A DNA stretch of 32,000 bases. Origin: Chlamydiota bacterium (GTDB lineage: Bacteria > Auribacterota > JACPWU01). The stretch is taken from assembly GCA_016196885.1 (NCBI GenBank), contig JACPWU010000002.1, positions 60,001 through 92,000 on the forward strand. The letters run 5' to 3'. The translations under genes were made by a program, and so were the position numbers. Positions 6,121 to 29,978 of this stretch are shown here, one piece after another. The notes below the pieces were generated by a model, which was not told the DNA's origin, did not search any database, and was given only the letters and a program-made list of their open reading frames with translations. Numbering within the stretch: position 1 is the first letter of the stretch; each line of letters opens with the position of its first letter.

Positions 6121-6321
6121 ATGATGAAGATTACAACATATATTGATGGAGATCTCTTGAAGCGGGCTTTAAAGGAAACAGGATCTCATTCTCAGCGTGA
6201 GGTGATTGAGACAGGTCTCAGAAATCTCTTAGCTGATTTTAAAAGAAAGCGTTTTGTGAAGGATTTTAATAACCTGCGCCTCAATCTTTCTCTGGAAACC
6301 CTTAAAAAAGAGCGTTCATGA
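6121..6321 (+). CDS. vapB: VapB-type (ribbon-helix-helix/DUF2191-like) type II antitoxin
   Basis: MKITTYIDGDLLKRALKETGSHSQREVIETGLRNLL matches the familiar VapB pattern (T.dID.eLl..A...tg...krevv..aLr.l). 66 aa. The true start may be ATG 6124. Confidence 0.7.
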   Translation: MMKITTYIDGDLLKRALKETGSHSQREVIETGLRNLLADFKRKRFVKDFNNLRLNLSLETLKKERS

Positions 6322-10195: not shown

Positions 10196-10293
10196 AATTT
10201 CCAATAACAAATGTCAAATTAATTTCCAATTCTCCAATGACCCATTGGGGATTGGAGCATGGGTCATTCATTTGATATTTGTTATTGGAAATT
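10196..10293. repeat. word hairpin WH2 (CCAAT/ATTGG words, nested)
   Basis: The outer arms AAATTTCCAATAACAAATGTCAAAT / ATTTGATATTTGTTATTGGAAATT have 1 mismatch. The inner stem is AATGACCCAT / ATGGGTCATT. WH2 fills the spacer between fmt and the rsmB remnant. Confidence 0.8.
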
Positions 10294-10303
10294 GGTTATT
10301 TCT

Positions 10304-10844
10304 ATGAGTCCTCGTGACGCTGCCTTTCACGCCCTTCAAAATTGGGAAAAGAAATCTTTGCCTATCTCTTACACCCTCGAGCCCTATTTTTTAAAGGCGA
10401 GTGAAGAAGATTTTTGAGAACATGAGGCGGTTGGGAATCAAAATGATTCTACCGATGGTGGCGGATGCGACGAAGATCAAAAATCTTTTTAAAATTCCTT
10501 TTGACCGCATTTTGGTAGATGTCCCGTGTTCTAATTGCGGAGTTTTTGCTAAAAGGGTCGAGGCCCGCTGACGGTTTTCTATGAAAGAAGTCAAGCGCTT
10601 GGCTGCGTTACAGATTCAAATTTTAAAAGAGGCGCTTCGGCTTCTAAAGTCAGGGGGGATTTTGGTGTATTCTACGTGCAGCATTGATCCTATCGAAAAT
10701 GAGGAAGTGGTTCGAGCTTCCTTGAAAGACCAAGCTCAATTCCAGCTCACCGATGAAAAAACAATATTTCAAACTCTTCAGCAGGCGGGGGGCTATTGGG
10801 CAAAGATAAGACTTTCCCTTGACAAGGGCGCTTTCCTAATTTAG
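10304..10844 (+). pseudogene. rsmB: decayed 16S rRNA m5C967 methyltransferase gene (rsmB/sun)
   Basis: 10304-10417 encodes MSPRDAAFHALQNWEKK...EEDF*, an RsmB-like N-terminus. 10422-10841, in another frame, encodes RRLGIK...FDRILVDVPCSNCGVFAKRVEAR*RFSMKEVKRLAALQIQILKEALRLLKSGGILVYSTCSI. This is the RsmB catalytic C-terminus, with TGA (10569-10571) at the conserved Trp position. About 250 codons, including SAM-binding motif I, are absent. The gene sits in the expected position after fmt. Confidence 0.75.
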
Positions 10845-10860
10845 ATTGAGTCTCAATTAA
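10819..10860 (+). promoter_or_regulatory. promoter (TTGACA-17-TAGATT) overlapped by a palindromic operator-like site
   Basis: TTGACA at 10819-10824, a 17-nt spacer, then TAGATT at 10842-10847. A perfect 6+1+6 palindrome ATTGAGtCTCAAT lies at 10845-10857, within TTAGATTGAGTCTCAATTAA. The SD AGGAG is at 10865-10869 and the ATG at 10876. Confidence 0.5.
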
Positions 10861-10875
10861 ACCCAGGAGTGTCAG

Positions 10876-12282
10876 ATGTTTGAATCGTTCATTATTACCT
10901 TGAGAGAAGGGATTGAGGCCTCCCTGGTGATCGGCATCCTTTTGGGGATTTTGAAAAAAATCTCGAGGGAGGACCTCGTTCGCTTCGTTTACGGGGGTGT
11001 GGGGGCCGCGGTCGTGGCCAGTGGCCTGGGGGCTCTTTTCCTCCAATCCTTTGTCATCAATGAAGAGGTGTATGAAGGGACCCTTTACCTTGTCGCCGCT
11101 TTTTTTGTGATCACCATGCTTTGTTGGATGCGCCGGCATGCCAGAACATTAAAGGGAGAAATTGAAACGGCTGTTCATCACATGACAGGTGGAGCCCAGA
11201 AAAAAGGAGAGGCCTGGGGAATTTTTGCCTTCACCTTTTTCATGGTTTTTCGGGAAGGGGTTGAGACGGTTCTTTTTTTAAGTGCCGTGGGTCTTACCAC
11301 GCAAAAGCTTTTGTCTTTTATCGCAGGACTGTTGGGTCTGGTGCTGGCCGTTCTTTTCTGCGTGGCTTTTGTGAAGGGGACCCTGCGGATTGATTTGGGG
11401 AGATTTTTCCGGGTGAGCACCGCCGTTTTATGGATTTTTGTTTTTCAATTGTGGGTCAATGGTTTTCACGAATTGTCCGAAGCTCAAATTTTACCTGCCA
11501 GTCAAAGGGAGATGGCCCTTGTAGGACCTTTGGTTAGAAACAATGCCTTTTTTATTTTGGCCATTCTGGCGATTCCCATTTTTATTTTTTTATTCTCTGC
11601 TCGGAAAAGGGAAAATTTACCCGATGAAATGTCAGGCCCTGAACGCAGACTGGCGTTGTCCAAGGCGAAAAGTGAAAGGCGCTGGCGTTTCAGTTGGTCG
11701 GCTGTCTCTTTTTTGATTCTTCTGTCTTTGGGGGCGCATACCGTTTATTCCAATCGGTCTGAAAAAATAGACCCTCCCCTTCTCGTAGAAAGCCAAGGCG
11801 GCTCGATTAAAATTCCTCTTTCTGAAGTAAATGATGGAAGGCTTCATCGGTTTGGCTTGAATGTTGGGGAAGGCATGGTTCGTTTTCTTGTCATTAAAAC
11901 CAGCGATGATCGTTATCGAACAGCCTTTGATCTTTGCGAAATCTGTGGAGATTATGGCTATCGCCAAGAAGGTGAGAATATTATTTGTCTCAATTGTACG
12001 GCGGCCATCCATCCTCCGACAATGGGTGTGGCAGGGGGATGCAATCCCATTCCTTTACAATCGTGGGTCGAGGGAGGGGAGCTTTTGGTTAAAGAGACAG
12101 ATTTAAAAGTGTTTCAAGATCATTTCAAAATGAAGGTGCTACCGGAAGTGACGTGCACCCTTTGTCACATGAAATTACATTTTGAAGAGGCAAAAGAAAT
12201 AAAGGCGAAGGGAAAAACTTTTTATCTTTGTCCGATGGAATCTTGCCAAAAAGAATTTGAGAAACGGTATTTGAATTATTAA
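10876..12282 (+). CDS. FTR1-family iron permease fused to a DUF2318-like Cys-rich domain and a C-terminal zinc ribbon (TRASH/YHS-like)
   Basis: Two REGxE motifs (REGIE aa 10-14, REGVE aa 126-130) and about 7 TM helices. After a further TM helix comes FDLCEICGDYGYRQEGENIICLNCTAAIHPPTMGVAGGCNPIPL, which I recognise as DUF2318/COG4393-like. The terminal ribbon is C427xxC430-x21-C452xxxxC457. Confidence 0.8.
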   Translation: MFESFIITLREGIEASLVIGILLGILKKISREDLVRFVYGGVGAAVVASGLGALFLQSFVINEEVYEGTLYLVAAFFVITMLCWMRRHARTLKGEIETAVHHMTGGAQKKGEAWGIFAFTFFMVFREGVETVLFLSAVGLTTQKLLSFIAGLLGLVLAVLFCVAFVKGTLRIDLGRFFRVSTAVLWIFVFQLWVNGFHELSEAQILPASQREMALVGPLVRNNAFFILAILAIPIFIFLFSARKRENLPDEMSGPERRLALSKAKSERRWRFSWSAVSFLILLSLGAHTVYSNRSEKIDPPLLVESQGGSIKIPLSEVNDGRLHRFGLNVGEGMVRFLVIKTSDDRYRTAFDLCEICGDYGYRQEGENIICLNCTAAIHPPTMGVAGGCNPIPLQSWVEGGELLVKETDLKVFQDHFKMKVLPEVTCTLCHMKLHFEEAKEIKAKGKTFYLCPMESCQKEFEKRYLNY

Positions 12283-12321
12283 AAACTAATTTGGACGAAA
12301 TTATTTTTAGAGACTTTTCCT

Positions 12322-13584
12322 ATGCTCTTACGAATCCTCAGTGAATCTTTCATGCGTCGCAAGCGGCGCAAAATACTGGGTGTTTTTGCCGTTTCCCTGG
12401 GCGCCAGCCTGGCGACGGCGGTGATTGGGATTTCCTTGGAAGTGGGAGATAAGGTGAGTCGTGAATTGAATGTTTATGGCTCGAATATCGTGGTTCATCC
12501 TTCGGATATTGTAGATGAAGAAGAGGGCCCCGTTCTGGGACAGCCCAGGCTCGACGAATCGGACCTTCCCAAAATGAAAACGATTTTCTGGGGCAATAAC
12601 ATCATGGATTTTGCCCCTTTTCTTTTGAGCGAGGTTACCCTCAAGGGCGAGACAATTTCTATTGAAGGAACATGGTTCTCTAAAGAAATGAGTGTCCCAG
12701 ATGGCCCATCCGTTAGAACGGGAGTCGAAACCCTTTTCCCTACCTGGCATGTGGAAGGGTCTTGGCCTCGAGATGATCAGGCCTTGAGAGAGGTGCTCGT
12801 AGGAAAAGAGATCGCGGCCCAGTTTAATATTCATCCTTCTCAAAAAATCACGATTGAGAAAAACGGAAAACCACTTGAGGTTTTAGCAACAGGAATTTTA
12901 AATTCGGGAGAGCAATACGATTCGAAAATTTTGGTGGATTTAGATTTGGCCCAAGGGCTCACTGGACTTCCTAAGGGAGTGGACCAAGTTTTCGTTCGAG
13001 CGCTCACCATTCCAGAAGATGATTTTCTGAAGCTTTACGCGCGTCATCCGCAGTCTCTTTCTCCTCAAGAGTATGAACGGTGGTCATGTTCCCCTTATGT
13101 CAGTACCGTTGCGGCTCAGCTTCAGGAGGCGATTGCGCATGCGGTTGCAGAGCCCATTCTTGAAGTTTCTCAAAGAGAAGGGGTTTTGCTTAAAAAGCTC
13201 AAAGGACTTTTTATTTTTATTTGTGCAGTTGCTTTATTAGCCGCTGGAGTTGCTTTAACCACTGTTTTAATGGCCACGGTGGTAGAAAGGCGTCAGGAGG
13301 TCGGGCTTTTAAGGGCTTTAGGCGCAGGCTCCAAAGATGTGGTTTTAATTTTTCTATCTGAATTGGCTGTCATGGCCATCCTCGGATCTTTTTTGGGGGG
13401 GGCCTTAGGCTATGGATTGGGACAATGGATATCCTTTCATTTGTTTCACTCTTTTATTCAACCTAATCCGATGGTTCTCTTTATTGTTGCGGGAGTGACA
13501 TTGACCATCTCTCTTATGGGAGGCCTTTTCCCTATACGATTTGCCCTCAAAGTAGACCCTGTGAGAGTCTTGCATGAAATTTAA
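12322..13584 (+). CDS. ABC transporter permease, FtsX/MacB type (N-terminal TM, large periplasmic domain, 3 C-terminal TM)
   Basis: 420 aa with MacB-like topology. FtsX-domain motif ERRQEVGLLRALGAGSKDV. Confidence 0.85.
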   Translation: MLLRILSESFMRRKRRKILGVFAVSLGASLATAVIGISLEVGDKVSRELNVYGSNIVVHPSDIVDEEEGPVLGQPRLDESDLPKMKTIFWGNNIMDFAPFLLSEVTLKGETISIEGTWFSKEMSVPDGPSVRTGVETLFPTWHVEGSWPRDDQALREVLVGKEIAAQFNIHPSQKITIEKNGKPLEVLATGILNSGEQYDSKILVDLDLAQGLTGLPKGVDQVFVRALTIPEDDFLKLYARHPQSLSPQEYERWSCSPYVSTVAAQLQEAIAHAVAEPILEVSQREGVLLKKLKGLFIFICAVALLAAGVALTTVLMATVVERRQEVGLLRALGAGSKDVVLIFLSELAVMAILGSFLGGALGYGLGQWISFHLFHSFIQPNPMVLFIVAGVTLTISLMGGLFPIRFALKVDPVRVLHEI

Positions 13585-14689
13585 AATGTTTTTAAAACTT
13601 TGTTTTGCTTCGATTTCTCATCAAAAGGGTAAATCAGCTTTGATGATGATTGTTTCTGTTATGGCCGTTGCGGTGACCACCAGTCTCTTGGGATTGATTT
13701 ATGATGTTCGGCTTCAAATGCAAAAGGAACTCATGGCCTTTGGCCCTAATTTTAAAGTCCAACCTCAATGGAATACCATTGGCAACATGATTTCGTGGGC
13801 CCAGTACGACGAAATTGAAAAAATGTTTTTCAGGCCAGATGCAATTATTTGCCCTGTTTTAGCGGGTGTGGTGTTGTGGAAAGATCGCTCTCAATTAATA
13901 GAAGGCGTTTTATTAGATGCTTACCAAAAGATTTCCAAGCATTGGATAGTGGAAGGTACATGGCCAAATAAGCCAGGAGAAGTTTTAGTGGGAGAAAAAG
14001 TCGCTCAGAAATTTCATTTAAAGTTGGGAGAGACTTTGACTTTTGATCAGTCCTCTCAAGCTTTTTTGATTCGAGGTTTTTTTCGATCAGGGACCCGAGA
14101 AGAAGAAAAAATAGTTTTCTCAATGAAAGGCGCGCAAAAAATTTTAAAAGAGGAAAAAAACTTTTCATTTGTTTTTGCCAGATTAAACAATTCTCTTCAG
14201 GAATTAGAAAATTTAAGCGAAAATATTGAAAAACATTTTCCTGATTTAAAGGCGGTTCCTATTCGAAGGGTTTCTTTGGCGGAGGGAGCGATTCTAGATC
14301 GTATTGGCAGTTTAGTGGGATGGGTGAATATCCTGATTTTGATGGTTGCTGCGTTGGCTTTGATGGCGACTTCAACAGTTTTGGTGGATGAGCGCCGTGA
14401 AGAGTTTGGCTTGCAGCGGGCCTTGGGAGCAAGTCCCGCTCAATTGATGCGGCTTTTTTACATGGAAACTTTTTTGAGTGCCTTCATCGTTTCACCCCTT
14501 GGTTTTTTACTAGGATTCTGGGGGCTAAAAATATTGGCTTATGAGGTTTTTTCGGCTCAAGCGACTTTTCGGTGGGAAATGGTTCCTGTGATTTTGATTG
14601 TTTTAATGGTTGTCATTCTTCTAGGAGAGAGTGTGGCTGTGAGAAGAATTGCGACCCTTGAGCCGGCGATGGTTTTAAAAGGGGAGTAA
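13574..14689 (+). CDS. ABC transporter permease, FtsX/MacB type (second subunit)
   Basis: 371 aa with the same topology. Motif ERREEFGLQRALGASPAQL. It overlaps the upstream gene by 11 nt. Confidence 0.85.
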   Translation: MKFKMFLKLCFASISHQKGKSALMMIVSVMAVAVTTSLLGLIYDVRLQMQKELMAFGPNFKVQPQWNTIGNMISWAQYDEIEKMFFRPDAIICPVLAGVVLWKDRSQLIEGVLLDAYQKISKHWIVEGTWPNKPGEVLVGEKVAQKFHLKLGETLTFDQSSQAFLIRGFFRSGTREEEKIVFSMKGAQKILKEEKNFSFVFARLNNSLQELENLSENIEKHFPDLKAVPIRRVSLAEGAILDRIGSLVGWVNILILMVAALALMATSTVLVDERREEFGLQRALGASPAQLMRLFYMETFLSAFIVSPLGFLLGFWGLKILAYEVFSAQATFRWEMVPVILIVLMVVILLGESVAVRRIATLEPAMVLKGE

Positions 14690-14698
14690 ATGAGTAAA

Positions 14699-14730
14699 GG
14701 ACGATGGACGATGGAAGATGGACGAAGATG
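14699..14730 (+). repeat. tandem heptamer array WH3 (GGACGAT GGACGAT GGAAGAT GGACGAA GATG)
   Basis: Read directly. It occupies essentially the whole permease-ATPase spacer and contains four ATGs (14704, 14711, 14718, 14728). There is no local complementary arm. Confidence 0.8.
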
Positions 14731-15801
14731 AGCAGCCTTATTCAAGCAAAAAATTTAACGCGTCGTTATAGTGACCATGTCATGGCCCTCGATCATGTAG
14801 ATTTAACAGTTGAACGAGGTGAATGGCTTGCCATGATGGGGCCTTCTGGGTCTGGGAAGACGACCTTGCTGAATTTATTGGGTTGTTTGGATCGTCCCAC
14901 GGAGGGAGAAATTTTCTTTGAAAATCGTTTGATCAGTACTTTCAGTGCTCAAGAGTTGAATCGCTTTCGCCGCGAAAATGTAGGGATCGTTTTTCAGCAA
15001 TTTCATTTGATTGGTTATTTGACGGCCCTGGAAAATGTAATGTTGGCTCAGTATTATCACAGCATGGTCGATCGTGAGGAGGCAAAGCGTGCCCTAGAGG
15101 ATGTCGGATTGGGTGAGCGGATTCATCATTATCCGTCACAACTTTCGGGAGGGGAGCAACAGCGGGTTTGCGTGGCCCGGGCCTTGATTAATCAGCCTAA
15201 ATTGATTTTGGCAGATGAACCTACAGGAAATTTGGACGAGAAAAGCGAAGAGACGGTGCTGGATCTTTTTCGGCGTTTGCACGCAAAGGGACACACTATT
15301 TTAATGGTCACGCATGACGTGACCGTTGGAAAAATGGCGGATCGTCAACTGCAATTGGAACACGGAAGAATAGCAGGATCTTATTTAAGTCCCCTTCAAG
15401 CAGAGGAGGATATTGAGAATTTTCTCAAGCGCTTATGGGAATTACGTGAAGAGGGTAAGCTTTCGTATGACTATTTGCAGAAAAATAATTTTTTGGATCA
15501 TGCGGGTGTTTTGAAATACATGCAGGCCAAAGAACTTTTGGAAGTGAAAGATCGAAAAATCTATTTTACTTCAGCAGGTGAGCTTCGTATGAGAGATATC
15601 ATTCGTCGCCACCGGCTGGCCGAAATACTTTTTTCTAAAGCTTTACACATGGATAAAGAAGAGTCGGCTGTTGAGGCCTGTCAATTTGAGCACATGCTCA
15701 ATCCCGATATCACAGAAAGAATCTGTACTTTTTTTCATCATCCAAAGAAATGTCCTCATGGGAAGGAAATTCCTGGAGGGAAATGCTGTGAAAGACCGTA
15801 G
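14728..15801 (+). CDS. ABC transporter ATP-binding protein (MacB/LolD type) with C-terminal DtxR/IdeR-like metal-dependent regulator domain
   Basis: The NBD has GPSGSGKTT, LSGGEQQR, LILADEPT and VTHD. The C-terminal ~135 aa read ENFLKRLWELREEG...RRHRLAEILF...EACQFEH...CPHGKEIP, colinear with DtxR EMYLRTIYELEEEG...RKHRLAERLL...EACRWEH...CPHGNPIP. The start is ATG 14728 (MSSLIQAKNL) or 14704. Confidence 0.85.
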   Translation: MSSLIQAKNLTRRYSDHVMALDHVDLTVERGEWLAMMGPSGSGKTTLLNLLGCLDRPTEGEIFFENRLISTFSAQELNRFRRENVGIVFQQFHLIGYLTALENVMLAQYYHSMVDREEAKRALEDVGLGERIHHYPSQLSGGEQQRVCVARALINQPKLILADEPTGNLDEKSEETVLDLFRRLHAKGHTILMVTHDVTVGKMADRQLQLEHGRIAGSYLSPLQAEEDIENFLKRLWELREEGKLSYDYLQKNNFLDHAGVLKYMQAKELLEVKDRKIYFTSAGELRMRDIIRRHRLAEILFSKALHMDKEESAVEACQFEHMLNPDITERICTFFHHPKKCPHGKEIPGGKCCERP

Positions 15802-15881
15802 CTCGTCTTTCGTCGTTCGTCTTCCGTTTATAAGCAAGAAGTTAGTAACGGACGACGAACAACTAACGAAGAACGACGAAC
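15802..15881. repeat. word hairpin WH4 (heptamers TTCGTCN / GACGAAC)
   Basis: The left arm CTCGTCTTTCGTCGTTCGTCTTCCGTT (15802-15828) is imperfectly complementary to the right arm AACGGACGACGAACAACTAACGAAGAACGACGAAC (15847-15881). WH4 starts immediately after the ATPase stop. Confidence 0.8.
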
Positions 15882-15911
15882 AAAAATTGTTCAAAAGAAA
15901 AACAGGTTGTT

Positions 15912-17189
15912 ATGAACCCCTATCATGGCTTATGGCTTAAGGCTCAAGAATTAATGCCCGGCGGTGTCAACAGTCCCGTACGGGCTTTTAAGTCTGTGGG
16001 GCTTGATCCGCTGATTGTTTCCAAAGCCAAGGGTTCCAAAATTTATGATGTTCGAGGCAAGGCCTATTTGGATTTGGTCATGTCCTGGGGACCTTTGATT
16101 TTAGGGCATGCGCATCCTGAGATTTTGAAAGCAGTAAAAGAGGCTTTGGAGGAGGGGTCTAGCTTTGGTGCCTTGTCTCATCGCGAAATTCTCTTGGCTG
16201 AGGCGATTTGTAACGCGCTGCCTTCCCTTGAAAAAATCCGTTTTGTCAGTTCGGGAACAGAAGCGGCCATGACAGCCATTCGTTTGGCGCGGGCTTTTAC
16301 TGGAAGGGATAAAATGATCAAGTTCGAAGGTTGCTATCACGGCCATTCCGATTTTCTTTTGGCCAAGGCGGGCTCTGGCCTTGCGACTTACAGTCTCGCA
16401 GGAAGCGCGGGGATTCCTAAAGAGGTTTTGAAATCTACGCTTGTTCTGCCATTCAATGATTGGGTGGCTCTTGAAAAAACAATGAATCGCTTCGGTCGTG
16501 AAATCGCCTGTATTTTGGTAGAACCCATTCCCGCCAACATGGGCTTGGTGTTTCCCGAAAAGGATATGCTTAAGACCTTAAGAAAAATGTGTACGCAAAA
16601 AGGAATCCTTTTAATCTTTGACGAAGTGATCACAGGTTTTCGAGTCGGATACGGAGGCGCACAAGAGCTTTATCACGTTCAACCTGATTTAACTATTTTA
16701 GGGAAAATCATTGGCGGCGGATTTCCCGTGGGTGCTGTCGGTGGGCGTAAAGAAATCATGGATCAATTGGCACCTTTGGGACCCGTGTATCAAGCAGGAA
16801 CCCTTTCTGGAAATCCGGTGGCCATGGCTGCGGGATTAAAAACTTTGGAAATTCTGAAGAGAAAAGGCGCTTATGAAAAACTTGAAAAGCTGGGCGCAAC
16901 TCTTGCTGGTGGTCTCGAAGAAATATTAAAGAAGAAAAAAATTTCCTTTCAGCTCCATCGCATCGGCTCCATGATGACTCTCTTTTTTAATGATCGGCCG
17001 ATTGAGAATTATCAGGATGTATTACAATGTAATACAGAAAAATTTAATCAATTCTTTAGAGAGATGTTTCGAAAAAGAATTTTCCTTCCTCCCTCTGCCT
17101 TTGAAACCTGGTTTTTGAGCTTGAGCCACTCTGCTCAAGACATCGAGAGCTTCTTAAAGGCAGCTGACCAGACGTTCAAGGCTTATTAA
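15912..17189 (+). CDS. hemL: glutamate-1-semialdehyde 2,1-aminomutase
   Basis: N-terminus ...MPGGVNSPVRAF, PLP-lysine region LGKIIGGGFPVGA, 425 aa. Confidence 0.95.
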   Translation: MNPYHGLWLKAQELMPGGVNSPVRAFKSVGLDPLIVSKAKGSKIYDVRGKAYLDLVMSWGPLILGHAHPEILKAVKEALEEGSSFGALSHREILLAEAICNALPSLEKIRFVSSGTEAAMTAIRLARAFTGRDKMIKFEGCYHGHSDFLLAKAGSGLATYSLAGSAGIPKEVLKSTLVLPFNDWVALEKTMNRFGREIACILVEPIPANMGLVFPEKDMLKTLRKMCTQKGILLIFDEVITGFRVGYGGAQELYHVQPDLTILGKIIGGGFPVGAVGGRKEIMDQLAPLGPVYQAGTLSGNPVAMAAGLKTLEILKRKGAYEKLEKLGATLAGGLEEILKKKKISFQLHRIGSMMTLFFNDRPIENYQDVLQCNTEKFNQFFREMFRKRIFLPPSAFETWFLSLSHSAQDIESFLKAADQTFKAY

Positions 17190-19983: not shown

Positions 19984-20067
19984 CTATTTAAAAAGGTCTG
20001 AGTGCGTTCCCGTTCTTTCAAAGATAATTTGGTTTTCAGTTTGTCGTGTGTAGACAGGAATTAACAT
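19984..20067 (-). pseudogene. RelE/YafQ-family toxin remnant (27-codon mini-ORF)
   Basis: ATG at 20067-20065 overlaps the dinJ-like stop (TGATG). It encodes MLIPVYTRQTENQIIFERTGTHSDLFK*. The tail ...IIFERTGTHSDLF is the characteristic C-terminal strand of RelE/YafQ toxins. About 60 N-terminal codons are missing. Confidence 0.5.
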
Positions 20068-20327
20068 CAGATGCCCAATCGTTTGAACATATCATTTGTA
20101 TCACGACAGACAATTAAATCTCTCTTTGCATCTGTGTTTGTAAAAGTTTTGAGCGTATTCCTGTTGGGAATACTGACATCGAAGGGAAGTCCTCTTCTGA
20201 GGGTGATTTGTTTGTAAAATATTGTGACGGCTTGGGAGACTGAAAGTCCAAGCCGGTGCAGTAATCCTTCTGCCTCATTCTTAAGATGAGGCTCTATTCG
20301 CGCATGAATCGTAGCCGTTTTATTCAT
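20067..20327 (-). CDS. RelB/DinJ-family type II antitoxin
   Basis: MNKTATIHARIEPHLKNEAEGLLHRLGLSVSQAVTIFYKQITLRRGLPFDV follows the DinJ pattern. The RBS AAGGAG lies 8 nt upstream of ATG 20327. The longer track ORF start at 20441 is rejected. Confidence 0.8.
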   Translation of the reverse strand: MNKTATIHARIEPHLKNEAEGLLHRLGLSVSQAVTIFYKQITLRRGLPFDVSIPNRNTLKTFTNTDAKRDLIVCRDTNDMFKRLGI

Positions 20328-20428
20328 AGCATATCTCCTTGTTTGCCTTAGGGGAGATGTAGCACAACCAGTACACATATGCAAGTGTTTTTGTGCTTTT
20401 CCATTGTTGAGACAGGAACCCGAGAATT

Positions 20429-21562
20429 TTATCCTCCCCACATGCGTCGAAAGAATCCGGCTTTTTTCACTTCCTCTTTTGCTTCTATATTGACACGGGC
20501 CAGGGTTTCTTCATCCAGGGTCGCAATATATTGGGCAATGATTTGGCCTTGGGTGATGGGGGCTTCGAGTGAAGGGGGGATGAAAATGGAAAGTTTGACT
20601 TGGGAGGCCTTGTCTTTGGGGACCATGAAGAAAAGATTGTCACTTGCGATACCCTGATCAGAAGAAGGTTTGCCATGATGAATCGGAATGTCGAATACTT
20701 GGCCTTTACAGGGAACAACCACATTGGTGAAGCGGTTGAAGCCATCATTCAGAAGTTGTCTCGTATATTCGGAACGTTCTTTGTTGGTGAGGGCTCCCAA
20801 GAGAACAGAAATCAATCTCATGTTTCCCTGTTTGGCTACACCCACCAAGCAATAGAGGGCCTCGTCGGTATAACCTGTTTTAAGTCCGAGCATGCCAGGA
20901 TATTTTCCAATCAATTTATTCGTGTTGATGAAACGGTATTTTCCCTGCCGAATAAAGATTTGTTTTTGCGATGAATATTGAAAAACTTCTGGGTAATCTC
21001 TCCATATGGCCAATGTCAGGCGTACCAGATCACAGGCTGTTGTCGTATCTTTGGGGGTATCTAGAGCTGGGGGAAGTCCATGGGGGCTTCTGAAAACCGT
21101 TTGTTTGAGACCTAAGGTCTTGGCTTTTTCATTCATGAGCTGGACAAAATTTTCCTGAGAGCCAGAGATCATTTCGGCCAGGGCAGCCGCTGCGTCATTG
21201 GCGCTTCCGACAGCGGTTGCTTTCACAAGGTCACGGGCAGAAATTTTTTCACCCTGCCACATTTTGGCTTCGGATCCGCGAATGGCTGCAATTCTGAGCG
21301 GAACGGTGTAAAGGCTGTCCCAGTGAATTTTGCCCTGATGGACGGCTTCGAAGGTGAGGTAAAGGGTCATGATTTTGGTGAGGCTAGCCGGGGCATGCGG
21401 CGCGTCTTTATTTTTTTGGGTTAGAATGTCGCCTGTGTCTGCATTTACGACCAGATAGGAACTGACAGGAATGTCTGTGCCTTTAGGTTTTAACTCTTTT
21501 GCTTGCAAGGAAAAGGGAATGATGCTCAGTAAAAAAAAGATCGAAAGTGTTTGTTTTTTCAT
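20429..21562 (-). CDS. dacA: D-alanyl-D-alanine carboxypeptidase (PBP5/6-like, peptidase S11) with signal peptide
   Basis: SxxK (ASLTKIM), SxN (GSANDAA), KTG (LKTGYT), and a C-terminal PBP5_C-like beta domain. Confidence 0.9.
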   Translation of the reverse strand: MKKQTLSIFFLLSIIPFSLQAKELKPKGTDIPVSSYLVVNADTGDILTQKNKDAPHAPASLTKIMTLYLTFEAVHQGKIHWDSLYTVPLRIAAIRGSEAKMWQGEKISARDLVKATAVGSANDAAAALAEMISGSQENFVQLMNEKAKTLGLKQTVFRSPHGLPPALDTPKDTTTACDLVRLTLAIWRDYPEVFQYSSQKQIFIRQGKYRFINTNKLIGKYPGMLGLKTGYTDEALYCLVGVAKQGNMRLISVLLGALTNKERSEYTRQLLNDGFNRFTNVVVPCKGQVFDIPIHHGKPSSDQGIASDNLFFMVPKDKASQVKLSIFIPPSLEAPITQGQIIAQYIATLDEETLARVNIEAKEEVKKAGFFRRMWGG

Positions 21563-22286: not shown

Positions 22287-22313
22287 TGAGTTCTTTTTAT
22301 GGAGGTATTCTCA

Positions 22314-23579
22314 ATGAAATTTATATTCGTCGTTTTTTTATCATCTCTCTATTTTTCATGCGCCTTTGCCGAAGAGAGAGAGAGGCTTTCTTTACCCGCT
22401 CTTATCGAGGAAGTTCTTCAAAAGAATCCTGACTTGAAGATGGCCGAGAAAAAATGGGAGGCTGCCCATGCCCAAATTCTTCAGGCGGGTGTTCTGGAAG
22501 ATCCGATGTTGGGAGTCGAAGTTGAAGGAATTCCCACCGATACGGTAGATGTGGGACGTTACAACGATATTGAATGGAGTTTCTCCCAGAATTTTCCTTT
22601 TCCTGGGAAGCTTTCACTCAAGAAAAAAATTGCTTGGGAAGAAGCAGAGAAGGCGCATCTTGAATATTTTGAAAAGAAAAATCAAATTGTTGCCGATGTC
22701 AAAATGGCATATGTGGATTATGATTTGATGTTTAGAACGATTCAAATCTTGGAAGACGATGAGCGGATTTTGAGTCAATTTGAAGAGAGTGCCCGAAGTA
22801 AGTATGAAGTAGGCAAAGTCTCTCAACAGGATGTTCTCAAGGCACAGGTTGAGTGGACGAAGATTAAAAATCAAATTCTGATTAAGAATCAAGAAAAAGA
22901 GACCTTGGCTGCAAGAATCAATATGTTACTCTCCCAGTCGCCTGGAGAATTATTGGGAGATCCGGAACCTTTGTCTGAAGAGACTTCAGAGTTGGATCTG
23001 GATTCACTCCTTTCAAGCGCCTTGGAGGGTCGTCCAGAACTGAAGATGAAAGAAGCTGAAATAAAAGGGATGGAATGGGCGCTTCGGTTGGCCCGGCGGC
23101 AGTATGAACCTGATTTTTTTACAAAACTTGAGAGCCGACAATTTCAAGGAGCAGGATTGGAAGAGTATGACGTCATGCTTGGGATGAGCATTCCGTGGCT
23201 GTGGACGCGTTCTCGCGTGGAGGGTGCAGTCCAAGAGGCCCGGGCCAATTTAGAGGCTGCACGAAATGAATACGAAGCAAAAAAATGGGCGATTTTATTT
23301 GAGGTTAAAGAATCGTGGGTGAAGGTTCATACCTCTGTCAGTCTGGTTAATCTTTATCGGTCCAATATTCTTCCGAAGGCGGATCAAATGATCAAAGTTT
23401 CTCAAATAAATTACGAGACGGATAAAATTGATTTTTTAATGCTTTTGGACAGCCTTAGAACTTTGGTGGCATTTCAATTGGAATATCGAGAGGCGATTGC
23501 GGATTATCATAAAAATTCTGCGCAGTTGGAGAGGAGAGTGGGAAAGCAGAATACAGAATTCAGAATTCAGAATAAATAA
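22314..23579 (+). CDS. cusC: TolC-family outer membrane efflux protein (CusC-like)
   Basis: Signal peptide MKFIFVVFLSSLYFSCAFA and two-repeat OEP architecture. GGAGG lies 8 nt upstream of ATG 22314, so that start is preferred over 22299. The gene is first of a C-B-A order. Confidence 0.85.
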   Translation: MKFIFVVFLSSLYFSCAFAEERERLSLPALIEEVLQKNPDLKMAEKKWEAAHAQILQAGVLEDPMLGVEVEGIPTDTVDVGRYNDIEWSFSQNFPFPGKLSLKKKIAWEEAEKAHLEYFEKKNQIVADVKMAYVDYDLMFRTIQILEDDERILSQFEESARSKYEVGKVSQQDVLKAQVEWTKIKNQILIKNQEKETLAARINMLLSQSPGELLGDPEPLSEETSELDLDSLLSSALEGRPELKMKEAEIKGMEWALRLARRQYEPDFFTKLESRQFQGAGLEEYDVMLGMSIPWLWTRSRVEGAVQEARANLEAARNEYEAKKWAILFEVKESWVKVHTSVSLVNLYRSNILPKADQMIKVSQINYETDKIDFLMLLDSLRTLVAFQLEYREAIADYHKNSAQLERRVGKQNTEFRIQNK

Positions 23580-23630
23580 GGAGGGGGTTGTTTTTATTCT
23601 GAATTCTGGATTCCGACTTCTGAATTCTAA
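23547..23630. repeat. word hairpin WH7 (heptamer CAGAATN)
   Basis: CAGAATA CAGAATT CAGAATT CAGAATA forms the left arm. A perfect 14-bp stem pairs CAGAATTCAGAATA (23561-23574) with TATTCTGAATTCTG (23595-23608). The left arm encodes the last residues of CusC (QNTEFRIQNK). Confidence 0.85.
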
Positions 23631-23642
23631 AAAAGGATCTTT

Positions 23643-25196
23643 ATGAAAACACGTATCTTTATCATATTGATAGTAGTTTTAGGACTCACGTCTTTTCTTT
23701 TGATTTATCGCCATTCTGTTTCTGGTAGGAAGCAGGATTCTTCTGAGAAAGTAGAGAGTGCGACGTATTACTGTCCCATGCATCCGACCTACACGAGTGA
23801 TCGGCCGGGGAACTGTCCGATTTGCAACATGACATTGGAGAAGAGAGAAGAAGTTCAGCCGTCTCCCTCGCAGTCTTTGAATTCAAAAGATATTTGCTTC
23901 ATGCACAATTGTCCCATGATGAAAGAGGGGGAAACATGCCCCATGATGGTGGTGGCGAAAGTTGGGGAGAAGGTTACCTGTCCTGTGTGTGGGTCTCATG
24001 TTGCACAGGAATCAAAGCAGGGCCCAGAAAAGAAAATTCTTTATTGGACGGATCCGATGATGCCGGATTTTCGTTCGGATAAACCCGGCAAGTCGCCTAT
24101 GGGCATGGACTGGGTCCCTGTTTATGAAGAAGAGGCAGTTGCTGGAGGGGATCATGCGGCTTCTCCATCAGGATATACCCCCATTCTGGTAAGTCCTCAA
24201 AAGATACAGTTGATTGGCGTTAAGACTGTTCTTGCCAAGAAGCAAAATTTAACAAAGCAAATTCGTACGGTAGGGCGAGTGACAGTGGATGAAACCCGCA
24301 TCGTTCGTGTTCATCCCAAAGTAGAGGGTTGGGTTGAGGAGATTTTTGCGAAGTATGAAGGGGATCGGGTGAATAAAGGTCAGCCGCTTTTTTCATTTTA
24401 CAGCCCTGATTTTGTCTCTGCCCAGGAAGAATATCTTTCGGCTTTGAAAATGCAAAGTGGGCTTCCCTCGGATGTGTCTAGCGATGCCCGAAGAGATGCC
24501 CAGGCCAATGTGGATTCTGCACAGAAGCGTCTTCAATGGTGGGATGTGACGGATGAACAAATTGAGGAGTTGAGAAAGCGTCAAGCCCCTCAAAAGACGC
24601 TTGTTTTGACGTCTCCTATCGATGGAGTCATTCTCAAGAAAAATGTTTTTGCGGGCCAGTTTATGGAAAGAGGTGCAGGCTTTTTTGAATTGGCGGATCT
24701 TTCGAGCGTGTGGGTGGATGCAGATTTATATGAGTATGATTTGCCTTGGGTCAAGGTGGGAGAAGAGGGGCGTGTCACATTGCCCAATGATTCCAAGAAT
24801 GAATGGAGCGGAAAGGTGATTTATGTGGCCCCTCTCTTAAAGGCGGAAACGCGAACCGCCGTGGCTCGTTTGGAGTTGTCGAATGCGGACAACGTTCTAA
24901 AGCCCGAGATGTACGTGACAGTCGAAATCTCTATTGATTTGGGAGAGCGGCTTGTTGTACCTGCGGAGGCTCTCTTGGATACGGGAGAGCGTAAAATTGT
25001 TTTTGTCAGCAAGGAGAATGGAATTTTTGAACCTCGAGAGGTGGTGATGGGGGCAAAGACGAATAAATCCGTCGAGATTGAAAAAGGGATTGATGAAGGG
25101 GAAGTCGTGGTGATCAATGGAAATTTTCTCATTGATTCTGAGAGCAGGTTGAAAGCGGCGATGGAGGGGATGGGAAGTGGAGAACATCAACATTGA
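23643..25196 (+). CDS. cusB: RND efflux periplasmic adaptor (CusB-like) with N-terminal HMBD and Met/Cys-rich extension
   Basis: YYCPMHPTYTSDRPGNCPICNMTLE (heavy-metal-binding-domain motif), CFMHNCPMMKEGETCPMM...CPVCG, the CusB-type LYWTDPMMPDFRSDKPGKSPMGMDWVPV, and then HlyD-like barrel-sandwich and beta-barrel regions. Confidence 0.9.
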   Translation: MKTRIFIILIVVLGLTSFLLIYRHSVSGRKQDSSEKVESATYYCPMHPTYTSDRPGNCPICNMTLEKREEVQPSPSQSLNSKDICFMHNCPMMKEGETCPMMVVAKVGEKVTCPVCGSHVAQESKQGPEKKILYWTDPMMPDFRSDKPGKSPMGMDWVPVYEEEAVAGGDHAASPSGYTPILVSPQKIQLIGVKTVLAKKQNLTKQIRTVGRVTVDETRIVRVHPKVEGWVEEIFAKYEGDRVNKGQPLFSFYSPDFVSAQEEYLSALKMQSGLPSDVSSDARRDAQANVDSAQKRLQWWDVTDEQIEELRKRQAPQKTLVLTSPIDGVILKKNVFAGQFMERGAGFFELADLSSVWVDADLYEYDLPWVKVGEEGRVTLPNDSKNEWSGKVIYVAPLLKAETRTAVARLELSNADNVLKPEMYVTVEISIDLGERLVVPAEALLDTGERKIVFVSKENGIFEPREVVMGAKTNKSVEIEKGIDEGEVVVINGNFLIDSESRLKAAMEGMGSGEHQH

Positions 25197-25295
25197 CTTC
25201 GCGTACTTCGTACATCGTACGTCGTACCTAGAACATCGAACATCGTTTCTTGCGTAGATTGTTTTACGAAGTCCGATGTCCGAAGTACGAAGTAC
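25197..25295. repeat. word hairpin WH8 (heptamers CTTCGTA / CGAAGTA)
   Basis: The left arm CTTCGCGTACTTCGTACATCGTACGTCGTACC (25197-25228) is imperfectly complementary to the right arm TACGAAGTCCGATGTCCGAAGTACGAAGTAC (25265-25295). Confidence 0.85.
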
Positions 25296-25308
25296 CAGGG
25301 TTAAGCTC

Positions 25309-28300
25309 ATGAATGAATACAAAAAAGAAGGTTTCATCGAGAGACTGATCGAATTTTCTGCTCGTAATAAATTTCTTATTCTTGCCCTTATTCTTGCGGC
25401 GGCAATCGGGGCGGGTTATACCCTTAAAAATATTCCTTTGGATGCGATTCCGGATCTTTCGGATACCCAGGTGATTGTTTACTCTCGCTGGGATCAGAGC
25501 CCCGATATTATTGAAGATCAAGTGACCTATCCCATTGTCACGGCTCTTTTGGGTGCACCCAATGTCAAGGCCATTCGGGGGTTCTCTGATTTTGGATTTT
25601 CTTATGTCTATGTGATTTTTAAAGATGGAACGGATATTTATTGGGCCCGGAGCCGGGTTCTCGAATACTTAAGCAAAATTACTGCGAAACTTCCTGAGGG
25701 AGTGAAGACCGAGTTGGGTCCGGATGCGACAGGGGTGGGATGGGTGTTTCAATATGCCTTGGTGGATACTTCTGGGAAACACGATCTCCAGGAGTTGAGG
25801 TCGTTTCAGGACTGGTATCTTAGGTACCATCTTCAAAGTGTGCAGGGAGTTTCTGAAGTGGCGTCCCTGGGGGGATTTGTGAAGCAATATCAGATCACCC
25901 TTGATCCCAATAAGCTTTTGGCCTATCACATTCCCATTTCGAAGGTCGTGGAGGCCATCCGCAGTGGAAATCAAGAAGTGGGCGGGCGGCTTCTTGAATT
26001 TTCCGGGGCAGAGTATATGGTGAGGAGCCGCGGATATGCGAAGTCTATAGAGGATCTTGAAAAAATTGTAGTGGGGGTTGACTCAAAAGGAACGCCCATT
26101 TTGGTGAAGCATGTTGCGAATGTGGCCATGGGGCCGGAGATTCGAAGAGGGCTGGCGGATTTAGATGGAGAAGGGGACGTAGTAACGGGGACTGTGATTA
26201 TGAGGTATGGGGAAAATGCCTTAAGGGTGATTGATCGGGTGAAGGGAAAATTAAAAGAGATGGAGTCTTCTTTTCCGTCAGGGGTCACCTGGAAAGTGAC
26301 TTATGACCGTTCAGAGCTGATTAAGAAATCCATAGAGACTTTGAAACATCAGTTGATTGAAGAAATGGTCATTGTCAGTTTTGTGATCATGATTTTTTTG
26401 TGGCATTTTCCCTCTAGTTTTATTCCGATTGTGACAATCCCCGTGGCCGTGTTTCTTTCTTTTATTCCCTTTGTGGGGCTTAAATTAACTTCAAACATTA
26501 TGTCGCTTTCAGGCATTGCGATTTCAATAGGAGTTCTCGTAGATGGGGCGATTGTGGAATTAGAAAATGCCTATAAGCGTTTGGAACAATGGAATGAGGG
26601 AGGAAGACAGGGGAGTTTTCATGCCATTCTTCTCAAGGCGATGAAAGAAGTGGGGCCTTCCGTTTTCTTTTCTCTTTTGGTGATTGCCGTTTCCTTCATG
26701 CCCATTTTTACATTGGTCGATCAGGAGGGGCGTTTGTTCAAGCCCTTGGCCTGGGCAAAAAATTTAGCGATGGTGACGGCTGCGATTTTGGCGGTGACTT
26801 TGGATCCTGCCCTCAGAATGCTTTTCACGCGAATGGATCCTTTTAAATTTAAACCGCTCTTTATTTCAAAGTTTTTTTCTACACTCTTGGTAGGAAAATA
26901 TTATTCAGAAGAGAAACATCCGGTGAGCCGCGTTCTTTTTAAAATTTATGAGCCGGTTTGTCGTTTTGTTTTAAGGCATCGAAAGGCTACGATTCTTGCC
27001 GCCACGTTGTGGGTGGCGACGACCGTTCCCGTTTATTTCAAATTGGGCGCTGAATTTATGCCCCCTCTTTGGGAAGGGGATCTTCTTTACATGCCAACGA
27101 CATTGCCCGGGATCTCTGTCACGGGGGCGCAAGACCTTTTACAAAAGCAGGATCAAATTCTTAAGAGTTTTCCGGAAGTCGAGCGGGTGTTTGGAAAATC
27201 GGGGCGCATTGAAAGTTCGACGGATCCGGCCCCCTTTTCCATGGGAGAAACCGTGGTCATGCTGAAGCCAGAAAGGGAGTGGAGAAACGTGAAGCGATGG
27301 TATTCGGATATCATCCCAGAATTTTTGCAAAGGCCTTTTCGTGCCATCTGGCCGGACCGGATTTCGAAGGAAGATTTAATTAATGAAATGGACAAGGCCT
27401 TGAAAATTCCTGGAACGACCAACGCATGGACCATGCCGATCAAAAACAGAATTGATATGTTGAGTACAGGCGTCAGAACTCCTATTGGGATTAAAATTTT
27501 GGGGGCTGATATTAAACAGATTGAAGAAATCGGGACGAATCTGGAAATGATTTTGAAAGATATTCACGGAACACGCAGTATTTATGCGGAGCGGGTGGCA
27601 GGCGGTTATTTCCTGGACTTTGATTTAAAGCGAGAAGAATTGGCCCGGTACGGTTTGTCTGTCGCAGATGTTCAAATGGTGATGATGTCTGCCATTGGCG
27701 GAGAACCCATCACGACGACGGTTGAAGGGCGAGAACGCTATACGGTGAATGTTCGTTATTCTCGTGAATTGAGGGATGATGTTGAAAAACTGAAACGGGT
27801 TTTGATTCCGACCCCTGCGGGGCCCCAAATCCCTCTGGCTCAACTTGCAGACATTCACAGAACCTCGGGTCCTGCCATGATTCGAAATGAGAATGGTCTT
27901 TTGGCTGGATATGTTTTTGTGGACATGACGGCGAGAGACATTGGAGGCTATGTGAGTGAGGCCAAACAAATTGTTTCTCAAAAACTTAAACTTCCTGAAG
28001 GGTATGGTCTGATTTGGAGCGGGCAATTTGAAAACATGTTGCGGGTGAGGAAACGGTTGAAGGTAGTGATTCCCCTGACTCTCTTTATTATTTCTCTTTT
28101 GCTTTACATGAATACAAAATCTGCGGTGAAGACAGGGATTGTTTTGCTCGCAGTCCCTTTTTCATTGATCGGGGCGGTGTGGCTGCTCTGGATTTTAGGA
28201 TATAATATTTCCATTGCGGTTTGGGTGGGGATGATTGCCCTCATGGGACTGGATGCGGAGACGGGCGTTTTCATGCTTCTTTTTTTGGATCTCTCGTATC

Positions 28301-28602: not shown

Positions 28603-28651
28603 TAGTAATTATTGCTTTGTTGGCTTATGATGTCTGAAGGAAGGACTGTTT

Positions 28652-29047: not shown

Positions 29048-29143
29048 GCGATAAGGTGGCGTCTTTTTCTTCTCGTACGCGCAACCTTTCTATGTCTTGT
29101 CCCATTCTTATTTTTAAACGCAAATCAACTATAAGGAGGAGAT

Positions 29144-29416: not shown

Positions 29417-29530
29417 GAAGCAAGAGAATCGTCTGTGTAAAAATATGATTTTGCTGAAAACTTATTGAGGCTGTCATCACATTCGCTTCGCTATTTTCAA
29501 AGGTCTCAATATCTAACAAAGGAGAGAAAG

Positions 29531-29899: not shown

Positions 29900-29912
29900 G
29901 AAACCATTTACC

Positions 29913-29942
29913 GAGGTCCTGTTTTTCTTGAGACAGGGCCTC
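29913..29942 (+). terminator. stem-loop after the small periplasmic protein gene (no clear U-tract)
   Basis: GAGGTCCTGT (29913-29922) pairs with ACAGGGCCTC (29933-29942), with one G-U pair. Confidence 0.3.
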
Positions 29943-29978
29943 GTGTGAATGATTAAGAAACGTGAAAAGGGGGGAACG

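Follow-up and report, generated by a model that had tools for sequence, protein, structure and literature searches.

A candidate iron-uptake operon of a Chlamydiota bacterium joins an FTR1 permease to a FetA-like DUF2318 protein and a FetD-like ATPase to a DtxR-like domain

Permeases of the FTR1 family are oxidase-dependent (PMC11966278). In the Fet systems of pathogens, FetA is a protein of 459–467 aa that combines about eight transmembrane (TM) helices with a DUF2318 and a YHS domain, and the role of FetA and FetBCD in Fet-dependent uptake by Campylobacter, Yersinia and Escherichia coli is an acknowledged open question (PMC10783030). Here we describe a homologue of the fetABCD genes in a 32-kb stretch of a Chlamydiota contig (JACPWU010000002.1, positions 60,001–92,000; the whole stretch is hereafter called the window), where one tightly packed four-gene operon occupies positions 10876–15801 (Table 1). 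On balance, we favour the reading that this operon encodes an uptake system, self-contained and under metal control, whose most likely substrate is iron and which would represent an FTR1-fused variant of the FetABCD half of FetMP-FetABCDEF.

The four open reading frames (ORF1–ORF4) that the original prediction, made from the letters of the window, had delineated exist where it put them. They lie on the same strand with spacings of +39, −11 and +14 nt, the genes of the FetB and FetC orthologues overlapping by 11 nt. A Pfam search of each ORF matched all the expected domains, with FTR1 and DUF2318 in ORF1, FtsX in ORF2, MacB_PCD and FtsX in ORF3, and ABC_tran and Fe_dep_repr_C in ORF4, confirming the predicted succession of two FtsX/MacB-type permeases and an ATPase–DtxR fusion.

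Table 1. Features of the operon and its control region, in window coordinates.
Feature	Position	Strand	Basis
Sigma-70-type promoter TTGACA-N17-TAGATT	10819..10847	+	best match in 10200-16100, 10/12 positions
Operator-like 7-1-7 palindrome AGATTGAG-T-CTCAATTA	10843..10859		overlaps −10 box, ends 17 nt before ATG
FetA-like fusion (ORF1): FTR1, TM8, periplasmic DUF2318, YHS/TRASH; 468 aa	10876..12282	+	Pfam, motifs, hydropathy
First REGxE motif, REGIE, residues 10-14, in TM1	10903..10917	+	motif scan
Second REGxE motif, REGVE, residues 126-130, in TM4	11251..11265	+	motif scan
DUF2318 / FtrD-like domain, residues 318-417	11827..12126	+	PF10080, 98.2 bits, E 3.3e-28
Five-Cys motif CxxC-x13-CxxC-x14-C, residues 354-389	11935..12042	+	CEIC-x13-CLNC-x14-C
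YHS/TRASH-type ribbon CTLC-x21-CPMESC (CxxC-x21-CxxxxC), residues 427-457	12154..12246	+	motif, relatives' alignment
FetB orthologue (ORF2), type VII (MacB/LolC-like) ABC permease	12322..13584	+	FtsX PF02687, BLASTP
FetC orthologue (ORF3), second type VII ABC permease	13574..14689	+	MacB_PCD + FtsX, BLASTP
FetD orthologue (ORF4), LolD/MacB-type ABC ATPase domain	14704..15387	+	ABC_tran, BLASTP
DtxR/IdeR-like tail of the ATPase, residues 229-365	15388..15801	+	Fe_dep_repr_C, alignment
Weak terminator-like hairpin, operon end	15788..15813	+	9-pair stem, 3 GC pairs; pattern match only

The N-terminal part of ORF1 carries an intact FTR1 permease. Residues 1–203 match PF03239 with 114.7 bits (E 6.6e-33), well above the gathering cut-off of 25.3 bits, and both REGxE motifs claimed for this protein were found, their residues R10, E11, G12, E14, R126, E127, G128 and E130 being invariant among 31 relatives. 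Hydropathy and charge pattern place the N-terminus outside, followed by seven TM helices and an inside C-terminus, which is the FTR1 topology. TM1 begins at residue 5, and the large N-terminal periplasmic domain of FetM is absent. Behind the permease, an Arg/Lys-rich cytoplasmic linker (10 K+R in 29 residues) leads into TM8, and the positive-inside pattern puts the last 178 aa of ORF1, beyond TM8, outside the membrane. The score against the NCBIfam EfeU equivalog (NF041756), 141.8 bits, is below its cut-off of 255 bits, and sequence searches of the PDB returned no solved relative of FTR1 or DUF2318.

A conserved stretch that contains a twin arginine, ERR...RRERF/W (11650–11745, residues 258–290), immediately precedes TM8 in 113 of the 121 proteins of the family; its counterpart in E. 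coli FetA reads QRRNALR. This stretch could be an internal signal of the twin-arginine translocation (Tat) type that exports a cofactor-loaded domain, as in actinobacterial Rieske proteins, an idea that we keep as a passing note only, because the positive-inside rule explains RR(E)R before TM8 equally well.

The predicted periplasmic part of ORF1 contains the Cys-rich domain, whose predicted kinship to DUF2318 was confirmed by the PF10080 match far above the gathering cut-off (26.3 bits). The five Cys residues and the GGCNP motif never vary, enterobacterial FetA included, and the Cys spacing is that published for Cj1660. An AlphaFold2 (AF2) model of residues 291–468 has a pLDDT of 91.3. The top 50 PDB fold matches of the DUF2318 model are all Rieske [2Fe-2S] domains, from oxygenases and ferredoxins (~110 columns, E ~5e-3, template-modelling score 0.35–0.40, Foldseek probability 0.96–1.00), and both CxxC pairs lie at hairpin ends, like the knuckles of Rieske or rubredoxin. 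The Rieske ligand pattern CxH...CxxH is not found in DUF2318, where the candidate ligands read CxxC...CxxC, and a search for sequence matches to PDB Rieske proteins gave none. Since the ligands are all Cys, we speak of resemblance to Rieske domains rather than membership.

The terminal CxxC-x21-CxxxxC ribbon is present exactly where it was predicted. It is not a new element: most full-length relatives have a Pfam YHS match (PF04945) there, reading DPVCGM...G.TYYFC.M..C..F, and in the lineage of the window CxxC replaces PVC, which yields a four-Cys, TRASH-like version. A family profile of the ribbon gave weak PDB matches to ribosomal protein L24e, which has the TRASH fold, and to the YHS domain of phenol hydroxylase. 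The window ribbon alone reached E 0.006 against a TRASH model, which is sub-threshold, the YHS homology coming through the alignment with relatives. Judged from these matches, the ribbon is probably a YHS/TRASH domain.

BLASTP comparison with the IncF plasmid copy of fetMP-fetABCDEF from E. coli relates all four genes of the operon to Fet proteins. ORF2 aligns over its full length with FetB (37% identity, E 4e-98), ORF3 with FetC (29%, E 4e-54) and the nucleotide-binding domain (NBD) of ORF4 with FetD (57%, E 1.8e-89). Within ORF1, the linker, TM8, DUF2318 and YHS (residues 257–463) correspond to residues 235–443 of FetA (30% identity, E 1e-25), and residues 4–205 to the permease core of FetM (27%, E 3e-15). 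As canonical FetA already consists of about eight TM helices, DUF2318 and YHS, the operon is best described as a fetABCD homologue in which an intact FTR1 replaces the N-terminal membrane domain of FetA. The relationship to Campylobacter cj1658-cj1665 stands, with FetB, FetC and FetD orthologues in the same order; what does not stand is the picture of a compaction of separate parts, because the DUF2318 protein FetA is itself a protein of about eight TM helices with YHS, and FTR1 is the only addition here. In the same way, FTR1 really is fused to the DUF2318 protein, but DUF2318 and ribbon are not newly joined, canonical FetA having both. A profile comparison (hhalign) of enterobacterial FetA with the fused family gave P = 1e-4, mostly from the shared linker; without the linker, the TM regions gave P = 0.04 against 0.2 for a reversed control. 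We do not claim that the N-terminal domain of FetA is a decayed FTR1, and a domain swap is the alternative.

Genes 2 to 4 encode a heterodimeric ATP-binding cassette (ABC) machine of the MacB/LolCDE type (type VII) that is orthologous to FetBCD. Hydropathy gives the FetB orthologue four TM helices and a periplasmic domain of 261 aa; the pair is heterodimeric and shows the large periplasmic domain between TM1 and TM2 of FtsX-type permeases. The nearest PDB relatives by sequence are MacB, YtrF, LolC and YbbP for the FetB orthologue, and YtrF, YbbP, LolF and MacB for the FetC orthologue. In the ATPase, which matches ABC_tran with E 4.6e-35, the Walker A, signature, Walker B and H-loop motifs do not vary. 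Its gene has been called in two ways, with 365 aa (start 14704) or 357 aa (ATG 14728). The database representative begins at the second ATG (MSSLIQ...) and the first seven residues have a pLDDT below 50; translation may in fact begin at 14728.

The C-terminal tail of the ATPase is related to metalloregulators of the DtxR type. Fe_dep_repr_C (PF02742) covers residues 289–357 with 78.8 bits (E 3e-22), and the last 140 residues align with residues 8–136 of DtxR, IdeR, SloR and ScaR (E 6e-12). Twelve residues of the tail are invariant, namely R301, R302, E307, C326, E329, H330, C341, H346, C350, H352, C361 and C362; among them, C326, E329 and H330 align with the primary-site ligands C102, E105 and H106 of DtxR. 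The position equivalent to DtxR M10 is not conserved. A Cys ligand is typical of the Fe-sensing, not the Mn-sensing, members of the DtxR/MntR family. The CPHG and CC residues of the C-terminal Cys/His cluster have no counterpart in DtxR and may form an extra site.

The DNA-binding part of this tail has fared differently. PF01325, the helix-turn-helix (HTH) domain, gave no hit at E ≤0.1 in the window ATPase tail and is found in none of the 120 best database relatives, all of which combine ABC_tran with Fe_dep_repr_C. Residues ~250–288, the HTH region, are the least conserved part across diverse fused ATPases, and relative to IdeR the tail has a five-residue deletion in the helix2–helix3 region. 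The AF2 model of the tail (pLDDT 87.5) keeps the complete winged-HTH fold. A tail that retains metal and dimerisation residues without a conserved HTH fits, at the level of sequence, an allosteric iron feedback on the ATPase. In a Nitrospirota locus (L013), the ATPase of the cassette is unfused, and 1.7 kb upstream a DtxR-family gene stands on its own.

Upstream of ORF1, a palindrome overlaps the −10 box of the promoter and is unique in the window; the site is also written AGATTGAGTCTCAATTA, and its box form is AGATTGAGNCTCAATCT. Promoter and operator sit in the 3' end of an rsmB remnant. Among 88 other loci (copies of the window contig excluded), the exact core ATTGAGNCTCAAT occurs only in L005, a close relative, and it does so twice: one copy forms a flawless 7-1-7 palindrome on the −10 box of a promoter with the same build, ahead of a Fur-like gene, and the other lies just after fur. 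In a second relative, L092, the box returns with 1–2 mismatches, once right before fur and once 73 nt before hemP. The promoter form TTGACA-N17-(A/T)AGATT / AATACT also precedes the fur-like genes of L005 and L092, and the Fur-like protein scores best against ferric-uptake regulators. The shared palindrome thus provides indirect, sequence-based evidence that would place the operon in a fur/hemP regulon, and Fur autoregulation is the simplest reading of the palindromes before the fur genes. A DtxR/IdeR box was considered for the palindrome and rejected, the TTAG flank being present in the window copy only. Across the three genomes the core reads (G)ATTGAG-N-CTCAAT(C), a poor match to both the Fur and the DtxR consensus; we therefore treat Fur as no more than the favoured candidate for the regulator. 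Acidobacterial loci with the fused tail have other, Fur-box-like palindromes.

At the other end of the operon, the gap between the ATPase gene and hemL (15800–15890) contains GC-poor inverted repeats, TCGTCGTTCGTC...GACGACGAAC, with GAACGACGAAC repeated, which may form a long hairpin acting as a terminator or as a hemL leader.

The cassette is found far beyond this genome. Counting at E ≤1e-5 among the candidates scored, we obtained at least 2,692 protein clusters related to the fused protein; in the best 120, FTR1 is always joined to DUF2318, YHS being optional, and neither of the REGxE motifs nor the Cys motif is ever missing. When one genome was scanned for each GTDB species, relatives turned up in at least 542 species, mostly Acidobacteriota (Terriglobia), with further carriers in Omnitrophota, Planctomycetota, Nitrospirota, TA06, Myxococcota, Deferrimicrobium and Geobacter. 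Database annotations of the fused genes read 'DUF2318 domain-containing protein' or 'FTR1 family protein', and our literature search found nothing describing either a fused P19-less cassette or an ATPase–DtxR fusion. Gene neighbourhoods of FTR1–DUF2318 fusions were compared in 85 loci (the window and 84 others), and most keep the cassette: two FtsX genes lie downstream of the fusion gene in 77 and an ABC ATPase gene in 76, the remaining loci being truncated contigs. The ATPase is fused to a DtxR-like domain in 65 of the 76 loci that have it.

In the loci surveyed, neither P19 nor EfeO/EfeB accompanies the cassette. A domain search of every window ORF of at least 120 aa revealed no P19, EfeO, EfeB, cupredoxin or thioredoxin domain, in agreement with the original prediction that the window lacks a P19/EfeO/cupredoxin or thioredoxin gene. 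None of the 85 cassettes has a P19, EfeO or EfeB gene as a neighbour within 10 kb, and PF10634 (P19) is absent from both the window and these loci. When 135 flanking genes from 35 non-redundant loci were scanned against Pfam, no recurrent partner family emerged and P19, cupredoxin and thioredoxin families were absent, the most frequent families being Asp_Glu_race (6), SprT-like (5), TonB_C (4) and FUR (2). A thioredoxin or FMN-binding gene beside the cassette is absent from the window operon and from 83 of the 84 other loci. The conserved order together with the lack of a recurrent partner indicates that the four genes are a self-contained conserved unit and not the peculiarity of one genome. 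The FTR1–DUF2318(±YHS)–FtsX–FtsX–ATPase(±DtxR tail) cassette is ancient and widespread, and the suggested streamlining is not special to this genome.

Close relatives of the window locus are larger. L005, whose FTR1 protein is 61% identical, and L092 both show the order fur, hemP, DUF6662, cassette, hemL; L005 also has FMN_bind and Aq_1264_TM immediately before the cassette, and a further contig (P0002) reads DUF6662, FMN_bind, Aq_1264_TM and then the fused gene. The FMN-binding protein of L005 and the P0002 contig is RnfG-like, and FMN-binding genes have been reported in Gram-positive and spirochaete Fet clusters (PMC6083913). Because these three close relatives carry extra upstream genes (FMN_bind with a small TM protein, or DUF6662), the window copy appears to be a trimmed version of a larger locus of the lineage. 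Their upstream blocks lie at 4777–7901 in L005, at 4944–5979 in L092 and on the P0002 contig. DUF6662 (258 aa) and Aq_1264_TM (170 aa) are uncharacterised candidates for further parts of the system, of which one might be an outer-membrane entry route and the other a membrane electron donor. Downstream, hemL follows the cassette in all three Chlamydiota-type loci (the window, L005 and L092), and synteny of the window with its relatives is kept (hemL, sucD).

More distant loci place the cassette in other settings. In L020 and L048, fur lies directly upstream. In a marine lineage (L006, 12826–14988), a gene for a ZntA-like P1B ATPase overlaps the end of the cassette ATPase gene and a Czc-type resistance-nodulation-division (RND) pump lies upstream, and in a Geobacter metagenome-assembled genome (MAG; L008, 12888–17345) the cassette adjoins a Tn7-like element (TnsA/TniB/TniQ), ArsR and Metal_resist genes. 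These two settings suggest that the cassette is mobile or part of metal islands. In L014 (16823–19255), 5 kb downstream of a full cassette, a stand-alone DUF2318 protein of 169 aa, one MacB_PCD/FtsX permease and an ABC ATPase occur without FTR1, preceded by a sigma-54 response regulator. The existence of such an FTR1-less DUF2318–FtsX–ABC module points to DUF2318 and type VII ABC proteins as a recurrent core pair.

From this architecture and its conservation we infer a chemistry, a coupling and an allostery as follows. The tethered DUF2318 would take the partner role that elsewhere falls to Fet3, P19/FetP, the cupredoxin FtrB or EfeO/EfeB; by analogy, it is plausible that DUF2318 and the ribbon take over metal hand-off to FTR1, as originally suggested. 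With its two CxxC knuckles and the invariant fifth Cys, the Rieske-like DUF2318 would bind metal and/or transfer one electron at the channel mouth, and the YHS/TRASH ribbon could provide an auxiliary metal site. The type VII ABC machine would carry no iron across the membrane and would instead convert cytoplasmic ATP into mechanical work on DUF2318/YHS or on the bound iron, such as loading, release or resetting. Two DtxR-like tails under the ATPase dimer would bind cytosolic Fe2+ and dimerise, altering ATPase activity in a fast feedback in the manner of the trans-inhibition of MetN and ModC. Transcription would start from the TTGACA-N17-TAGATT promoter and would be repressed via the overlapping palindrome by a lineage-specific metalloregulator, most likely of the Fur family. 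Cytosolic iron would then exert control at two levels, on transcription through the operator and on the ATPase through the tail. Only tentatively do we extend this proposal to a distinct class of FTR1 importer that dispenses with a soluble ferroxidase or P19 and relies on a tethered all-Cys Rieske-like centre and a MacB-type motor, with a DtxR domain shutting the motor at high cytosolic Fe2+.

The ATPase tail might instead act as a DNA-binding repressor like Chlamydia YtgCR, tethered or cleaved, which binds the palindrome at 10843–10859 and thereby confers iron-responsive autoregulation. The tail does align with DtxR/IdeR over both the DNA-binding and the metal-binding domain, its AF2 model keeps the HTH and wing elements, the palindrome overlaps the −10 box, and L013 has its separate DtxR-family gene by the cassette. 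In addition, the host is a member of the Chlamydiota, and Chlamydia has a DtxR-like repressor that is made as a fusion with an ABC permease and acts after cleavage (PMC7755916). However, the HTH region is just the part that is least conserved, with PF01325 in 0 of the 120 best homologues and the deletion relative to IdeR in helix2–helix3. The palindrome also stands before fur-like genes in two relatives, where Fur autoregulation is simpler, the acidobacterial loci with fused tails carry different, Fur-box-like palindromes, and the DtxR-box-like flank is confined to the window copy of the box. We consider a repressor role of the tail unlikely. Also improbable, and slightly more so, is a system that takes up, senses or detoxifies copper or another thiophilic or heavy metal, with DUF2318 and YHS/TRASH as Cu(I)/Zn/Cd sites. 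The YHS and TRASH domains are classically tied to copper and heavy metals, the L006 and L008 cassettes lie among the metal-resistance genes described above, and a CusCBA-like pump is encoded 6.5 kb downstream in the window. In gut Firmicutes, the CsoR copper regulon includes DUF2318 membrane proteins (PMC4938975). Against this, both REGxE motifs, the hallmark of iron permeases, are kept without variation; iron-dependent phenotypes are known for the orthologous FetABCD genes (PMC10783030); and in the tail the ligands are still the Cys, Glu and His of DtxR proteins of the Fe type. The neighbours in the three related Chlamydiota-type contigs are fur, hemP, DUF6662 and hemL, fur is the gene directly upstream in L020 and L048, and copper could assist iron oxidation as a cofactor, the part it plays in P19 and Fet3, without being the substrate.

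If the FetBCD-like machine were a conventional exporter of a reductant, a thiol or a small chelator, FTR1 would import Fe2+ and DUF2318 would be a redox relay only; Richardson-Sanchez et al. propose that FetBCD with FetA relays reducing power to FetMP (PMC10783030). Many Fet clusters do include a thioredoxin or FMN-binding gene, but such a recipient is missing beside the cassette in the window and in 83 of 84 other loci. Moreover, the permeases are of the FtsX/MacB type, with four TM helices and a large periplasmic domain, and MacB, LolCDE and FtsEX act by mechanotransmission, without a transmembrane substrate channel. We give the exporter little credence. A similarly low probability attaches to the possibility that the system is not truly P19-less and that P19/FetP, EfeO or a cupredoxin partner is encoded elsewhere in the genome. 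The sequence examined is 32 kb of a draft MAG, and the window locus has lost the fur-hemP-DUF6662 (and FMN_bind) block of its relatives, so that partner genes may be scattered; yet canonical systems always keep fetP beside fetM (PMC6083913), the 10-kb surroundings of all 85 cassettes, from many phyla, are free of P19, EfeO and EfeB, and the permease, with TM1 starting at residue 5, has no equivalent of FetM's large N-terminal periplasmic domain.

Several points nevertheless weigh against the self-contained iron-uptake system that we favour. The substrate of the fused family is assigned from homology and context only. The DUF2318 ligand set is Cys4 plus Cys and not Cys2His2, and mononuclear Fe, Zn or Cu, or redox-active disulfides, would fit equally well; an Fe-S cofactor would also need a route to the periplasmic C-terminal domain. 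The winged-HTH fold kept in the tail model makes DNA binding by the tail conceivable, and the palindrome is close to neither the canonical Fur box nor the DtxR box. The frequent link of YHS domains with copper and the location of some relatives beside heavy-metal efflux genes (L006) or in a metal-resistance/Tn7-like island (L008) count here as well, as does the CsoR regulon of gut Firmicutes with its DUF2318 proteins (PMC4938975). Finally, a P19 or EfeO gene may lie in another part of the genome.

If the proposal is true, the tail would be the first known case of a metalloregulator fold put to new use on an ABC ATPase, where it would serve as an allosteric domain acting by trans-inhibition, and the fusion would serve as a Rosetta stone, indicating that FetA and FetBCD of pathogens act directly on the FTR1 permease. 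The presence of DUF2318/YHS on a live FTR1 argues for direct cooperation of the two, and the iron-sensor tail, placed as it is on the ATPase, points to the ATP-driven step as the one at which uptake is controlled. As the four-gene cassette contains neither P19 nor thioredoxin genes, it should be easier to reconstitute than the eight-gene cluster of pathogens. Some environmental Chlamydiota would have an FTR1-type iron route besides the Ytg-type system of pathogenic chlamydiae. The cassette is not rare and its general function is unsurprising; its value lies in the concrete leads, open to testing, that it offers on what FetA and FetBCD do.

The operon is surrounded by genes of other functions. 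Upstream lie def, DUF1189, fmt and a fragmented rsmB, the latter a truncated remnant of three short ORFs (52, 56 and 87 aa; 10259–10844) that all match the RsmB methyltransferase. Positions 22299–31445 hold a CusCBA/CzcCBA-like heavy-metal RND efflux set, which comprises an outer-membrane efflux protein (OEP), an AcrB-family pump and a membrane-fusion protein that has two heavy-metal-binding (HMBD) motifs; a further OEP gene is located at 29949–31445, with two unassigned ORFs of 131 and 144 aa in between. Toxin–antitoxin remnants, comprising a RelB-like antitoxin, a weak PIN-domain ORF and a weak VapB-like ORF, were found at 20067–20441 (−), ~2601–2918 (−) and ~6121–6321 (+), the latter two mapped from the gene calls of L001.

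Among described systems, FetMP-FetABCDEF (cj1658-cj1665 or CJJ81176_1649-1656 in C. jejuni, IncF plasmids in E. coli) is the nearest, sharing with the window the fetA-B-C-D order, DUF2318 (followed in the window by a probable YHS domain) and the same five-Cys spacing. The window operon differs by the lack of FetM, FetP (P19) and the FetE/FetF thioredoxin. Furthermore, the N-terminal membrane domain of E. coli FetA has no Pfam match and no REGxE, whereas the window has an intact FTR1; E. coli FetD (231 aa) lacks the DtxR-like tail of its window counterpart; and the putative YHS domain of the window has four Cys, TRASH-like, compared with none in that of E. coli FetA. With Fet3p-Ftr1p, EfeUOB and FtrABCD, the operon has in common a seven-TM FTR1 with two REXXE motifs and the expectation of an extracytoplasmic metal or redox partner (PMC11966278). 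In the window this partner is neither a multicopper oxidase nor a cupredoxin, P19 or EfeO/EfeB; its place is taken by the fused Cys-rich, Rieske-like domain together with an ATP-driven type VII ABC machine.

For its ABC part, the window shares the FtsX fold and a LolD/MacB-like ATPase with MacB, LolCDE, FtsEX, YbbP and YtrEF, and a heterodimeric permease pair with LolC/LolE. Unlike MacB, LolCDE and FtsEX, the machine is paired with an FTR1–DUF2318 protein rather than with TolC/MacA, lipoproteins or cell-wall hydrolases, and its ATPase bears a metal-sensor domain. A DtxR-family module on a component of a metal ABC system is also known from YtgCR of Chlamydia trachomatis (PMC7755916). There, however, the fusion is on the permease and not on the ATPase, the transporter is a Mn/Fe importer of the TroABCD/YtgABCD type and not type VII, and the HTH is not conserved in the window tail; in addition, the ATPase–DtxR fusion is not specific to chlamydiae but occurs mostly in Acidobacteriota. 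The C2 domain of MetN and the extra C-terminal domains of ModC and MalK offer a parallel for the position of the tail, which, judged from the geometry, would likewise dimerise under the NBD pair and could bind, on the cytoplasmic side, the species that is transported. Those domains are ACT-like or TOBE, whereas the tail in the window derives from a DtxR-type metalloregulator.

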